Source: an uncultured Candidatus Saccharibacteria bacterium
Lineage (GTDB): Bacteria > Patescibacteriota > Minisyncoccia > Phycocordibacterales > UBA12088
NCBI GenBank assembly: GCA_964562615.1
Contig: CAZLUD010000002.1
Span: forward strand, 17,907-81,906
Direction: 5' to 3'
DNA: 64,000 nt
In this document: positions 3,957 to 39,602 of the stretch, in pieces
How the letters are laid out: each line of letters starts with the position of its first letter
How positions within the stretch are numbered: position 1 is the stretch's first letter
The notes under the pieces: generated by a model
Databases searched by the model: none
What the model was told of the DNA's origin: nothing
What the model saw: the letters and a program-made list of their open reading frames with translations, nothing else
Position numbers and translations under genes: made by a program

Positions 3957-4391
3957 ATGCTGATAGGAGAATACATTCACACACTCGACCCAAAAAAGCG
4001 TTTATCGCTCCCTGCTAAGTTTCGAAAGGAGCTTGGAAAAGGGGTGGTGGTAACACGAGGGCTCGATCACTGCTTGTGGGTGTATTCAACTAAAGAGTGG
4101 CATGTAATCGCAACACGACTCGCTGCACTGCCAATAGGGCAGGCGGATACAAGAGGGTTTGCACGTTTTATGTTTTCGGGTGCAACCGAGGTAGACATAG
4201 ACAGTGCAGGGAGAATGCTCATTCCAGACTTTCTCAAAACATTTGCAGGCCTTGAGAACAAAGTGGTACTCGCTGGTGCGCAAACACGAATTGAGATATG
4301 GAACGAAGCAGCATGGGAAGCGTACAAAATGCGTATCGAATCACAGGCAGATGTAATGGCTGAAAAACTTGGAGAGATAGGCATTGTATGA
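3957..4391 (+). CDS. mraZ: Transcriptional regulator MraZ
   Basis: 144 aa with duplicated MraZ DxxxR motifs. It is the first gene of the dcw cluster. Confidence 0.9.
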   Translation: MLIGEYIHTLDPKKRLSLPAKFRKELGKGVVVTRGLDHCLWVYSTKEWHVIATRLAALPIGQADTRGFARFMFSGATEVDIDSAGRMLIPDFLKTFAGLENKVVLAGAQTRIEIWNEAAWEAYKMRIESQADVMAEKLGEIGIV

Positions 4392-5284
4392 CCACCCATA
4401 TCCCCGTTCTTCGAAATGAAGCAATAGAAGCACTCCTCATCAACGACCATGATGTGGTGGTAGACGCTACCCTTGGTGGAGCCGGGTATGCCAAAGACAT
4501 TGTTGGCAAGCTCTCAGCAGACGGGGTATTTGTCGGCATAGATGCTGATGCAAAGGCAATTGCCCGCGCACAGCTGGCGCTTAAAGGCGCCAAGCCAACC
4601 ACGTATCTTGTAAACACCAATTTTAGACATATCGGTGTCGTACTTGATGAGCTTCATATTGCTACGGTTAATAAAGTTGTCTTTGACCTTGGTCTATCCT
4701 CGTATCAGCTTGAAGAAGGCGAGAGAGGGTTCACCTTTCAAAAAGACGAACCACTTATTATGACGTTTGCTACCGAGACGCTTCCTCATGAGAGAACTGC
4801 TCGAGACATAGTAAATGAGGACAGTGTTGAAGCGCTTACTACCATGCTCTTTACCTACGGAGATGAAAAGTACGCACGTCGAATTGCAACAGCAATTGTA
4901 AGTGAGCGAGCGATTGCACCAATAGAAACTACTGGTGCGCTCGTAGCCATCATAGAGAAGGCAGTCCCGGTGGTATACAAAAAGCAACGGACACATCCTG
5001 CCACACGAACGTTTCAAGCACTTAGGATTGCAGTCAATGAAGAGTACGACGCGCTTACAGAAACACTCACCACCGCAATAAGCAGACTAAGCAGTAAAGG
5101 AAGGATAGCAGTAGTGAGCTTTCATAGCGGAGAGGACAGAATTGTAAAAACGATTTTTCGGGAGGCGGCACAAAACGGTAGTGGGGTGCGTGTAACTAAA
5201 AAGCCAATTGTGCCGCGCCCCGAGGAAGTCGAACACAATCCTCGTTCACGAAGCGCAAAATTACGGGTATTTGAAGCACTATGA
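4388..5284 (+). CDS. rsmH: 16S rRNA m4C1402 methyltransferase RsmH
   Basis: Begins HIPVL and contains the DATLGGAGY SAM-binding motif. It overlaps mraZ by 4 nt. Confidence 0.92.
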   Translation: MTTHIPVLRNEAIEALLINDHDVVVDATLGGAGYAKDIVGKLSADGVFVGIDADAKAIARAQLALKGAKPTTYLVNTNFRHIGVVLDELHIATVNKVVFDLGLSSYQLEEGERGFTFQKDEPLIMTFATETLPHERTARDIVNEDSVEALTTMLFTYGDEKYARRIATAIVSERAIAPIETTGALVAIIEKAVPVVYKKQRTHPATRTFQALRIAVNEEYDALTETLTTAISRLSSKGRIAVVSFHSGEDRIVKTIFREAAQNGSGVRVTKKPIVPRPEEVEHNPRSRSAKLRVFEAL

Positions 5285-9019: not shown

Positions 9020-9091
9020 GGCCCTATCGTCTAACGGTTAGGACGGAGCCTTCTCAAGGCTTAAATCGGGGTTCGATTCCCCGTAGGGTCA
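9020..9091 (+). tRNA. tRNA-Glu (anticodon CUC), no encoded CCA
   Basis: Manual cloverleaf: acceptor GGCCCTA/TAGGGTC, D-arm GTCT/GGAC, anticodon stem GAGCC/GGCTT with loop TTCTCAA, T-arm CGGGG-TTCGATT-CCCCG. Confidence 0.8.
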
Positions 9092-37318: not shown

Positions 37319-37708
37319 TTGTTGTTTCTCGCTATCTCGACGTTTAATCAGCCTTCAGTGCTTGCTGCACCTACGGATGTGTTTGCCACAGATGGTGATA
37401 ACGAACGGGTAGAAGAGATCACGAGAGCGTATTTTAGCGATGTGCCAGTAATGGCAGAAATAGCGTGGTGTGAATCTAAGTTTAAGCAGTTTGATGAGCG
37501 TGATGGTGGTGTAGAGCGCGGTGACGTCACGAGTGAAGACGTGGGAGTTATGCAAGTTAACGAGTACTTCCACAAAGACGTTGCTGACTCACTTGGACTT
37601 GATCTTCATACCCTTGGTGGAAATCTTCTCTATGCTCGGTACTTATACGAGAAAGAGGGGACAAAACCTTGGAACTCATCAAAGCATTGTTGGAAAAAAA
37701 GAATCTAA
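37319..37708 (+). CDS. Secreted lysozyme-like/transglycosylase-like small protein (TTG start per the track; start uncertain)
   Basis: Signal-peptide-like N-terminus ending in AAP. WCESKF...GVMQVN resembles lysozyme-like catalytic motifs. Confidence 0.4.
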   Translation: MLFLAISTFNQPSVLAAPTDVFATDGDNERVEEITRAYFSDVPVMAEIAWCESKFKQFDERDGGVERGDVTSEDVGVMQVNEYFHKDVADSLGLDLHTLGGNLLYARYLYEKEGTKPWNSSKHCWKKRI

Positions 37709-37751
37709 CATTACACACAACACCCGTCATTATATGACGGGTGTTGTGTTG

Positions 37752-38213
37752 TTATAGGGTTATCTCATGCTCGTGCAGGTCTTTTTTATTTGCTTGTGGT
37801 GGAGGTGTGCGGCGCATAAAATAATCTGCGCTTATTCGTCCTGGCCCGTGACCTAAGAGGTAACAAAGCCCTCCGAGTATGGCAATGTTTTTTAACAAAG
37901 AGGTATCGCTAAATGAATTATGAATAAGCAATATGGTAAGGATGGTAAATAGCGCAAGTAATGATGCGCTTATATGGGTTAAAAGCCCTATCACAACAAG
38001 TGAGCCAAAGACAATCTCAATTCCTATTACGGCATAGGTGATAAGCTCAGGGTAGGGCAATGAAAGGGAAGCGACAGTGCTTACCACGCCTTCAATCATG
38101 TATAGCTTTGCGATACCTGAAAACAAAAATAGTGAGCCGATACTTACCCTTCCGATAAGGATGTATATCGTCTCGCATATACCACAGTGATAACGTGAAA
38201 ATGTACTTTGCAT
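37752..38213 (-). CDS. DoxX-family membrane protein
   Basis: 4-TM DoxX-like core (SIGSLFLFSGIAKL). Confidence 0.75.
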   Translation of the reverse strand: MQSTFSRYHCGICETIYILIGRVSIGSLFLFSGIAKLYMIEGVVSTVASLSLPYPELITYAVIGIEIVFGSLVVIGLLTHISASLLALFTILTILLIHNSFSDTSLLKNIAILGGLCYLLGHGPGRISADYFMRRTPPPQANKKDLHEHEITL

Positions 38214-38242
38214 ATATAAAGTATAGCCTATGTTGAAACGCT

Positions 38243-38269
38243 TGACACCTTATGTAGGGGGAGTAAAAT
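38243..38269 (+). promoter_or_regulatory. Sigma70-like promoter of the ncRNA candidate
   Basis: TTGACA -35, 15-nt spacer, TAAAAT -10. Confidence 0.55.
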
Positions 38270-38275
38270 AATTGT

Positions 38276-38442
38276 GTCGATAGGTTCGCGACTCTATCGA
38301 CTTCGACATCGTAGATGGCGTTCCCTCCCCAGGGGCGGTGCGGGTGGAGAGCATTTTCTCTCCATATTGTGAACCGGGCTTGTGGCCCGCACCGCCCTCA
38401 CGGGCCGAGCATAGTCTTCCTTCACTGGAAGACTATTTTTGT
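38276..38442 (+). ncRNA. Structured small RNA candidate (about 165 nt) of unknown class
   Basis: Consensus promoter, 8-bp 5' hairpin, 12-bp long-range helix GGGCGGTGCGGG/CCCGCACCGCCC enclosing two hairpins, and an intrinsic terminator GTCTTCC...GGAAGAC-TATTTTT. Confidence 0.5.
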
Positions 38443-38502
38443 ATAGAGACAAAATAGGAAAAGTGATGTATAGTTTATTCAGCAGCAGAAAGGAGAGAGA
38501 GT

Positions 38503-38598
38503 ATGCAAACACTCGCCGAGAGAGTCATGCTTCGCGGTTTGTTACTTGTACCTCTTGTAATTCTTTTCACCCTTCTTCTAAAAGAAACTCTAATTTAG
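38503..38598 (+). CDS. 31-aa hydrophobic peptide ORF (MQTLAERVMLRGLLLVPLVILFTLLLKETLI) with a strong RBS; absent from the ORF track
   Basis: AAAGGAGAGAG RBS 5 nt upstream of the ATG. Followed by a terminator at 38627-38670 (ACCGCA...TGCGGT then T8). Confidence 0.45.
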   Translation: MQTLAERVMLRGLLLVPLVILFTLLLKETLI

Positions 38599-38626
38599 AG
38601 GAATATTCTCTCCTCTATTTACCTTT

Positions 38627-38670
38627 ACCGCAAGTATGATCTGTGTGATCGTATGTGCGGTATTTTTTTT
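38627..38670 (+). terminator. Rho-independent terminator
   Basis: ACCGCA...TGCGGT stem with a structured loop, then TTTTTTTT. Confidence 0.6.
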
Positions 38671-38747
38671 GTCCAATTTTTGCCCGTTGAGTAGATATCT
38701 CTTTGTGTGATATAACCTTGGAGGTCACACACATAAGGAGTTTTGGT

Positions 38748-39059
38748 ATGACTCAGCGCCTCGTTCAGATATACTTACTTCCTAAAGCGATAGAGATAGA
38801 AGAGTACAACAAAAAAGTTCGTCGGATTTGTGTGCTTTCTGCTTTTTTTGCAATAGTACTAGTAATTGTTGTTGCGTTTGTCTCAGAGCTTATAAAAGCA
38901 GTATTCGGCATACCATTTCAAGGCACCTTCGCAGAAGATGCTTTTCTTGTACTCGTAAGCGGCGTAATTGGACTTGCGCTTATAGGCTATATCACTCACC
39001 GGGGCAATCATGTCATGAACCTACGTAGGGTTAATGGCAGGTATGAACCAGACACATAG
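38748..39059 (+). CDS. Hypothetical small membrane protein. The AAGGAG RBS favours ATG 38748 over the track start at 38703
   Basis: AAGGAG 8 nt upstream. Two predicted TM helices. Confidence 0.5.
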   Translation: MTQRLVQIYLLPKAIEIEEYNKKVRRICVLSAFFAIVLVIVVAFVSELIKAVFGIPFQGTFAEDAFLVLVSGVIGLALIGYITHRGNHVMNLRRVNGRYEPDT

Positions 39060-39067
39060 TATGTATT

Positions 39068-39101
39068 GCCCGCACTATCATGAAAAATAGTGCGGGCTTT
39101 T
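39068..39101 (+). terminator. Rho-independent terminator
   Basis: GCCCGCACTAT-loop-ATAGTGCGGGC followed by TTTT. Confidence 0.8.
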
Positions 39102-39602
39102 ACTACTCTGAAAACAATTTTTACTTGGACGCATTATTAAGGTAACGCAAGTAAGGTGCGGTTATGGTAAATAGTATATTTTTATTATTCAAATTTTTTA
39201 ATTGATTTATTTGTGCCAGCAAGGAGAGAGGTCGGAGGACGGGAAGAGGGAGCGAATTTGAGTGTAAAATAATATATTTTTTTATTTGTACGAGTATTCA
39301 TACCAATCAATACTGCGCATTTATTACTAGAGGGAAGCTATTTAATGGCTTATTTGAAAATGCATGAGTGTCGCACAATATATCTTTTGCGTCATTAAAA
39401 TCAGGCAATTTGCGACGTATACTCTGTGGTCTGTATCAACTAACTATATTGTATTGATGCACTTCTATCTTCTGAGATTGGCGCGTGTTGTTAATCGATA
39501 CAAATATATATTGAACACAAAAGCGTGACTGTGTCCCCTCTGTGCCTCTACGGTAGTACTCACCATCATTGGTTATGTGTACTGCCTTATCTAAAGGATT
39601 TC

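Follow-up and report, generated by a model that had tools for sequence, protein, structure and literature searches.

A predicted structured small RNA with its own promoter and terminator in a genus-level clade of Patescibacteria

Positions 38242-38440 on the plus strand of a 64,000-nucleotide stretch of contig CAZLUD010000002.1 from an uncultured Candidatus Saccharibacteria bacterium (the whole of which we call the window) carry a compact element composed of a promoter, a 5' hairpin, a 12-bp GC helix, and an intrinsic terminator. It lies between the divergent gene of a DoxX-family membrane protein and a short downstream gene and, judging from its sequence and that of its homologues, very probably is a real, structured, and stand-alone RNA gene. 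The initial annotation had described a compact promoter-to-terminator structured RNA of unknown class, which our analysis supports and for which no fitting family was found in Rfam 15. The sigma-70-type promoter at 38242-38269 (+) has a -35 box TTGACA (38242-38247) and a -10 box TAAAAT (38264-38269) separated by a spacer of 16 nt and agrees with the consensus at 11 of 12 positions. A promoter scan of 37500-39500 ranked it by far as the top site in a region with 8 promoter-like sites where shuffles lead one to expect 5.0 ± 2.0. The spacer also contains a GGGRG block (38259-38263) that was not seen as a general feature of promoters in the window. The predicted transcript of about 165 nt would span 38274-38440 (+), with its start placed 5 to 7 nt past the -10 box and its end in the U-tract of an intrinsic terminator at 38411-38440 (+) that is built from a 10-bp stem (38411-38436) with a 6-nt loop and UUUUU (T-run 38436-38440). 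Both of these signals had been called by the initial annotation and are present as described. Local GC content is 50% to 51%, compared with ca. 39% in the flanks.

Folding of 38270-38442 with RNAfold resulted in -76.5 kcal/mol versus -55.1 ± 4.0 kcal/mol for dinucleotide shuffles (z = -5.3; none of 200 shuffles reached this stability) and returned the 5' hairpin, the 12-bp helix GGGCGGUGCGGG/CCCGCACCGCCC, a GGAGAG/CUCUCC hairpin, and the terminator. The 5'-terminal hairpin, P1 (38276-38301, +), is recovered by RNAfold and RNAalifold alike and has a stem of 8 to 9 bp closed by the loop UUCGCGAC; its strands GTCGATAG (38276-38283) and CTATCGAC (38294-38301) form the 8-bp hairpin that had been noted before. 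A linker between P1 and P2 follows (38302-38332, +) that includes the pyrimidine-rich segment UUCCCUCCCC (38321-38330) with the anti-Shine-Dalgarno core CCUCC, keeps the motif RYRUUCYCU across homologues, and has a mean unpaired probability of ca. 0.4 to 0.6. The 5' strand of P2, GGGCGGTGCGGG (38333-38344, +), pairs with its 3' strand CCCGCACCGCCC (38386-38397, +; RNAfold and RNAalifold). As an almost invariant helix of 10 to 12 bp, P2 closes the GC-rich domain. Between these strands lie the variable arm P2a (38345-38364, +), a UGGAGAG-CAUUUU-CUCUCCA hairpin with the inner stem GGAGAG (38346-38351) / CTCTCC (38358-38363), a mostly unpaired junction strand AUAUUGUGAAC(C) (38365-38375, +; unpaired probability 0.6 to 0.8), and the hairpin P2b (38376-38388, +) of the form GGGC-UUGUG-GCCC, in which GGGC at 38376-38379 pairs with GCCC at 38385-38388. 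The initial annotation had seen a 12-bp helix enclosing two hairpins, and while all three are there, the second hairpin overlaps the last 3 bp of the helix. P2b and the full P2 share this CCC and cannot both form completely, and the choice between a full 12-bp P2 and a short P2 together with P2b is mutually exclusive in every homologue. The 3' tail UCACGGGCCGAGC (38398-38410, +) leads from P2 to the terminator and pairs weakly with the linker in a register that is not conserved. It begins with the tcACGGgc segment (38398-38405) that the initial annotation had singled out, which is present as stated but not conserved, with homologues reading TTACTGGC, TTCAGGGC, CTTGGGGG, and TTCGGTGC.

Contigs of relatives were reached via homologues of DoxX in SRA assemblies plus one metagenome-assembled genome from NCBI. 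Using nhmmer and MAFFT, we found a homologous element in the same position and orientation, divergent from DoxX, in all six loci, which provide six distinct sequences: that of the window (identical in L150) and those of L003/L004, L009, L001/L002/L054, L005/L006, and L007. No homologue of the RNA was detected with the same programs in L008, a locus with a distant DoxX and other synteny. A covariance model built from the six distinct homologues (R1) scores 99 to 167 bits on them, including 146 bits on window positions 38270-38442, with a single copy in the 64-kb window. The TTGAC of the -35 box, the GGGRG block, the TAnnnT of the -10 box, and the TTTT of the terminator U-tract are invariant at fixed spacing in six of six sequences, meaning that the relatives conserve the own promoter and own terminator that characterize the gene of a stand-alone small RNA (sRNA).

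The covariation alignment that the initial annotation had proposed as a check recovered P1, P2, P2a, P2b, and the terminator with RNAalifold and contains double changes in 10 of 43 pairs, i.e., ten compensated pairs. In the model-based alignment, standard pairs occupy 89.8% of cells as compared with 41% to 51% when partners are slid by 1 to 3 columns, and the covariation score is 0.31 versus no more than 0.14 in the slid controls; none of 500 shuffles reached the observed values, though all of these figures lean to the favourable side because the alignment had been fitted to the structure and was made from related sequences. As the fold recurs with covariation in five other distinct sequences, we conclude that the structure goes beyond chance. 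Conservation is distributed very unevenly along the RNA. Eight of the 11 modelled P2 pairs never vary and one changes from G-C to A-U in L005 and L007 (columns 82/153), while the closing pair of P2b is C-G in the window, L003, and L009 and U-A in L001, L005, and L007 (columns 139/146). Between sub-clades, the P2 5' strand is 73% to 82% identical and the block of P2b and the P2 3' strand 67% to 71%; P1, the P2 interior, and the terminator are only 20% to 62% identical yet still form helices. P1 exists as a hairpin of 7 to 9 bp in all six sequences despite 22% to 47% identity between sub-clades, L001 has GGGGG/CCCCC in place of the P2a arm, L005 and L007 have longer or additional hairpins there, and the terminator stem has a different sequence in every lineage with four compensatory pairs.

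Other pairings fit only some of the sequences. A pseudoknot between GAAC in the junction and GUUC in the linker fits the window, L001, and L009 (GAAAAC/GUUUUC) but misfits L003, L005, and L007, and we rejected a pairing of an upstream GGGGGAG with CUCCCC of the linker that fits the window but not L009, L005, or L007. In L005 (5761-5943, -) and L007 (487-668, -), the P2b sequence GGGUUCCUU can alternatively pair with an upstream AGGAR-N-CCC in a longer helix that is missing from the window clade, and the P2 interior is thus organised differently between sub-clades. Compared with L003/L004, the window RNA has a 6-nt insertion at ca. 38302-38307 (a TTCGAC repeat that is also an insertion relative to L009) and ca. 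9% substitutions, although GltX of the window and L003/L004 is 99.5% identical. The neighbouring genes evolve much more slowly than this periphery of the RNA. A coding region, which the initial annotation had named as the case that would speak against an RNA gene if found in relatives, is ruled out by indels of 1, 2, and 6 nt that shift the frame and by peptide-like strings that lie in differing frames across homologues; the homologues have no conserved reading frame in common, and L005 lacks the ATG at 38315.

As far as can be seen, the RNA is restricted to one genus-level clade of the candidate phyla radiation (CPR)/Patescibacteria. The genomes that carry it share 80% to 99.5% identity in GltX and 86% to 99.8% identity in an M23 peptidase with the window, and the nearest named relatives of this peptidase are from Parcubacteria, Kaiserbacteria, and Pacebacteria. 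The nearest relative without the RNA, L129 (GltX 66%, M23 peptidase 70%), has DoxX in the same neighbourhood, and a search with R1 with filters off found no RNA at the syntenic site. Likewise, no RNA was found in the DNA searched of L131 (M23 peptidase 57%; filters off) or L130 (M23 peptidase 54%; default filters only), whose GltX is 53% to 56% identical. A DoxX profile search returned no further close relatives. Among the at least 119 matches listed from a scan of species genomes for the core pattern, all but one were chance GC-rich hairpins of high-GC genomes, and only L054, the same contig as L001, was real according to R1. Two pattern scans of JGI metagenomes gave 0 and 15 matches and a scan of IMG/VR viral sequences gave 3, none of them real, and blastn against phage and plasmid collections yielded no match to the RNA. 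Nine of the 15 matches from the second JGI scan (L132, L134, L137-L140, L142, L143, and L145) belong to a single well-conserved family with ca. 68% to 70% GC and a match span of 163 nt that is not related to the RNA described here.

Comparison with known families gave no assignment. At gathering thresholds, a scan of the whole window with the 4227 covariance models of Rfam 15, as suggested by the initial annotation, detected nothing besides a tRNA-Glu at 9020-9091 on which ARAGORN agrees, and a permissive scan of 38150-38750 with E-values up to 10 left the plus strand of the element without a match. In the loci of L003, L005, L007, and L009, no Rfam match fell on the homologous RNA either; sub-threshold matches to ohsC and OrzO-P in these loci fall on an unrelated terminator. 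The earlier statement that the RNA is not obviously a signal recognition particle (SRP) RNA, 6S RNA, or transfer-messenger RNA is borne out by these scans. We found no description of this RNA in the literature and nothing on regulatory RNAs of CPR/Patescibacteria. The RNA is therefore a new family but of a familiar kind, namely, a lineage-specific sRNA that is transcribed from a sigma-70-type promoter and ended by an intrinsic terminator.

Downstream of the terminator, the window has a separate unit at 38446-38617 (+) with a promoter-like element GAGACA-17-TATAGT (38446-38474), the ribosome-binding site (RBS) AAAGGAG, an open reading frame (ORF) for the 31-aa hydrophobic peptide MQTLAERVMLRGLLLVPLVILFTLLLKETLI (38503-38598), and a hairpin with T-run (38596-38617). 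Conservation at the protein level in L003, L009, and L001 suggests that this ORF probably encodes a real small membrane protein. Such a hydrophobic peptide of 31 to 34 aa, preceded by a good RBS, follows the RNA in four of the six lineages (the window, L003, L009, and L001), all of which keep the GAGACA-17-TATAGT element, while in L005 and L007 there is an unrelated protein of 93 to 113 aa preceded by GTGACT-17-TACTCT (both elements are consensus matches). Searches of Pfam gave no informative family for either type of downstream gene.

On the other side, the divergent gene at 37752-38213 (-) encodes a DoxX-family membrane protein (Pfam DoxX, E = 3e-17) that is the only conserved neighbour of the RNA. 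The -35 region of the RNA promoter is also used, on the opposite strand, by the promoter-like site of DoxX, GTGTCA-17-TATACT (38248-38220, -), and the two divergent promoters may compete. As the -10 box of the DoxX site stops 6 nt short of the annotated ATG, the DoxX mRNA may be leaderless. Outside the clade, the nearest DoxX homologues are of Sphingomonas type with 38% to 41% identity rather than from CPR, and the gene may therefore have been acquired horizontally. Two further features of the neighbourhood are the following. A conserved block of ca. 45 nt, GAGTGTCGCACAATATATCTTTTGCGTCATTAAAATC, which may be a promoter, operator, or small element of another kind, is located at ca. 39362-39405 of the window. 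It lies downstream of the gene for the M23 peptidase in intergenic DNA that is rich in AT and cannot otherwise be aligned, and it recurs at L005 4938-5019, L001 3450-3485, and, even though the RNA is missing there, at ca. 9545-9590 of L129. Past the terminator of the gene for a 113-aa membrane protein (window 39098-39105), L004 has an insertion of ca. 1 kb with a 246-aa ORF (4113-5121) in DNA that is otherwise 95% to 97% identical to the window, which marks this region as variable.

The initial annotation had left the choice between a trans-acting sRNA and a riboswitch or leader of the 31-aa ORF, and of these two the former stays the best reading. We tentatively propose, with a probability of roughly 0.4, that the RNA acts in trans by base pairing as a riboregulator. 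In this scenario, P1 and the terminator hairpin would protect the ends of the RNA, the linker UUCCCUCC with its CCUCC would pair with the purine-rich RBS of target mRNAs and block their translation, and the invariant P2 domain would serve as a structural or protein-recognition module. The RBSs in this region are of the AGGAG type, and the linker reads CCUCC in the window, L003, and L001, UCUCC in L007, and UUCCU in L005. Known precedents are the sRNAs with C-rich motifs of Gram-positive bacteria such as RsaE and RoxS, which occlude RBSs with a C/U-rich seed. The RNA resembles them in having a stand-alone gene that is framed by a promoter and an intrinsic terminator of its own, in its compact and hairpin-rich fold, and in a conserved pyrimidine-rich segment (CCUCC/UCCY) that could occlude Shine-Dalgarno sequences. 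It differs in that there is no similarity of sequence or at the level of covariance models, in having a single pyrimidine motif in a linker instead of motifs in several loops, and in its dominant 12-bp GC helix that has no counterpart there.

Several observations weigh against this proposal. The CCUCC core is changed to CCUCG in L009, and the pyrimidine segment of L005 and L007 can largely be sequestered in an extra hairpin (CCUGG/CCAGG, CUCC/GGAG). Among possible targets in the 64-kb window, the longest perfect complementarity of 11 nt is at chance level, and the mRNAs of DoxX and of the downstream gene do not surpass shuffled targets in predicted duplex energy (absolute z < 1.4). Furthermore, the strongest constraint is found on the P2 helix and not on the linker, and this pattern is no less compatible with recognition of a protein or ligand than with base pairing. 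In the core, P2 and P2b have one compensatory change each, either of which probably represents about one evolutionary event, and the family is known from six sequences of one genus only.

The most direct competitor to a base-pairing riboregulator would be an RNA that binds protein as the scaffold of a ribonucleoprotein (RNP) or senses a ligand in trans, with P2 and the junction as recognition module. The near-invariance of P2 in sequence (8 of 11 pairs) over a divergence at which the other helices covary freely fits with this possibility, as do the multi-way junction with 55% to 62% GC in a genome of ca. 40% GC and the two P2 conformations that exclude each other in every sequence. Yet its distribution is very narrow, with no RNA at the syntenic site of the nearest relative L129, there is no conserved adjacent partner gene except DoxX, and we recognised none of the internal-loop or bulge motifs that typify protein sites, which leads us to regard this explanation as possible but rather unlikely. 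It is extremely improbable that the RNA is a highly divergent housekeeping RNA such as 6S or SRP RNA that was missed by the Rfam models. Like 6S and small SRP RNAs, it would be 100 to 200 nt long, would be transcribed from a strong promoter, and has a GC-rich fold of high stability. In addition, this promoter is conserved, the RNA occurs as a single copy, and the only RNA that Rfam found in the window is one tRNA. However, those RNAs form one long irregular hairpin while here a 5' hairpin, a branched domain, and a terminator follow each other; we found neither the single long hairpin of 6S RNA that is closed by the ends of the molecule and opened by a large central bubble nor a hairpin like SRP domain IV. 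The lack of an Rfam match, conservation limited to one genus, absence from the syntenic site in L129, L130, and L131, failure to find the core pattern in JGI metagenomes that are rich in CPR genomes, and a fast periphery (with ca. 9% difference between genomes of 99.5% identical GltX) are at odds with a housekeeping role, too. A third concern is that the conserved structure might not be a plus-strand RNA at all but the 5' leader of DoxX on the minus strand or a palindromic element at the level of DNA. Folding of the minus strand is at least as stable (z = -7.05), as is expected of any helix-rich region, and P1 followed by AUUAUUUUA on that strand resembles a weak terminator or attenuator upstream of DoxX. 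Still, 221 of 246 cells can pair on the plus strand compared with 206 of 246 on the minus strand, and G·U exceeds A·C combinations by 22 to 7, which favours the plus strand as that of the RNA. The conserved promoter and U-tract are also on the plus strand, the promoter-like site of DoxX lies between the structure and the ATG and thus leaves the structure upstream of the DoxX start, and a DNA element fits poorly with a single copy, no terminal repeats, and no phage or plasmid matches. We therefore consider this explanation very improbable.

The remaining alternatives tie the RNA to the gene downstream. As a cis-acting leader or riboswitch, its domain would sense a signal and its terminator would control read-through into that gene. 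The order of promoter, multi-helix domain, intrinsic terminator, and ORF is indeed that of a terminating riboswitch, with a terminator directly 3' of the structured domain, alternative pairings within it (P2/P2b), and a gene on the same strand within 60 to 130 nt downstream in all six loci. But these genes are non-homologous between sub-clades, encoding a membrane peptide of 31 to 34 aa or a soluble protein of 93 to 113 aa, and both groups have a conserved promoter-like element between terminator and ORF. Moreover, no antiterminator was found: in RNAs truncated before the 3' strand of the terminator, the 5' strand has no conserved partner and is either unpaired or weakly paired in non-homologous registers. 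The terminators themselves are long, near-perfect stems that look constitutive, and no Rfam riboswitch matches the RNA. The suggestion of the initial annotation that the element could be the leader of the 31-aa ORF thus finds no support, and the unrelated downstream genes with promoter-like elements of their own and the missing antiterminator lead us to view the element as its own transcription unit and a leader as improbable. Similarly improbable is that it is the antitoxin or regulator of a pair akin to type I toxin-antitoxin systems in which the adjacent hydrophobic peptide would be the toxin. Type I loci such as tisB/istR-1 and shoB/ohsC are arranged in tandem or divergently, and the layout of our locus is reminiscent of them. 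Just like with IstR-1, OhsC, or the Orz RNAs, an sRNA gene neighbours the gene of a hydrophobic peptide of ca. 30 aa that would be transcribed separately. In our case, the peptide gene lies immediately downstream in four of six lineages, has a promoter-like element of its own, and is followed by a terminator-like hairpin in the window clade. Unlike in these systems, there is no complementarity of 18 to 21 nt to the peptide mRNA, nor any extended complementarity of at least ca. 18 nt (duplex z = -0.8 to +0.6), and the 7 to 10 nt over which the 3' strand of P2a matches the RBS of the peptide in the window no longer match in L009 and L001. Nor is every member of the RNA family accompanied by the peptide, which L005 and L007 lack next to the RNA; the RNA is much longer and more structured than those antitoxins, and in L129 a candidate ORF of 69 aa with a hydrophobic C-terminus adjoins DoxX without the RNA.

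With these alternatives considered, a trans-acting sRNA that works by base pairing continues to be our preferred reading. It is unlikely, but would be of particular consequence, that the GC helix and junction with their choice between P2 and P2b constitute a new ligand- or protein-sensing RNA domain. The RNA would then establish a new functional class among structured RNAs with a regulatory or RNP role and would, to our knowledge, define the first structured sRNA family in CPR/Patescibacteria; it might also have a functional link to the divergent DoxX, whose promoter uses the same -35 region. The practical impact of the RNA is limited by its occurrence in one rare uncultured genus and by an architecture that is ordinary for bacterial sRNAs, while the unusually invariant GC helix with a competing hairpin and a group of organisms with unexplored riboregulators add to its interest. 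CPR/Patescibacteria are ultra-small, host-dependent bacteria with reduced genomes whose riboregulation is essentially uncharacterised, and a structured RNA gene backed by covariation and by clear transcription signals offers a concrete entry point into this biology.

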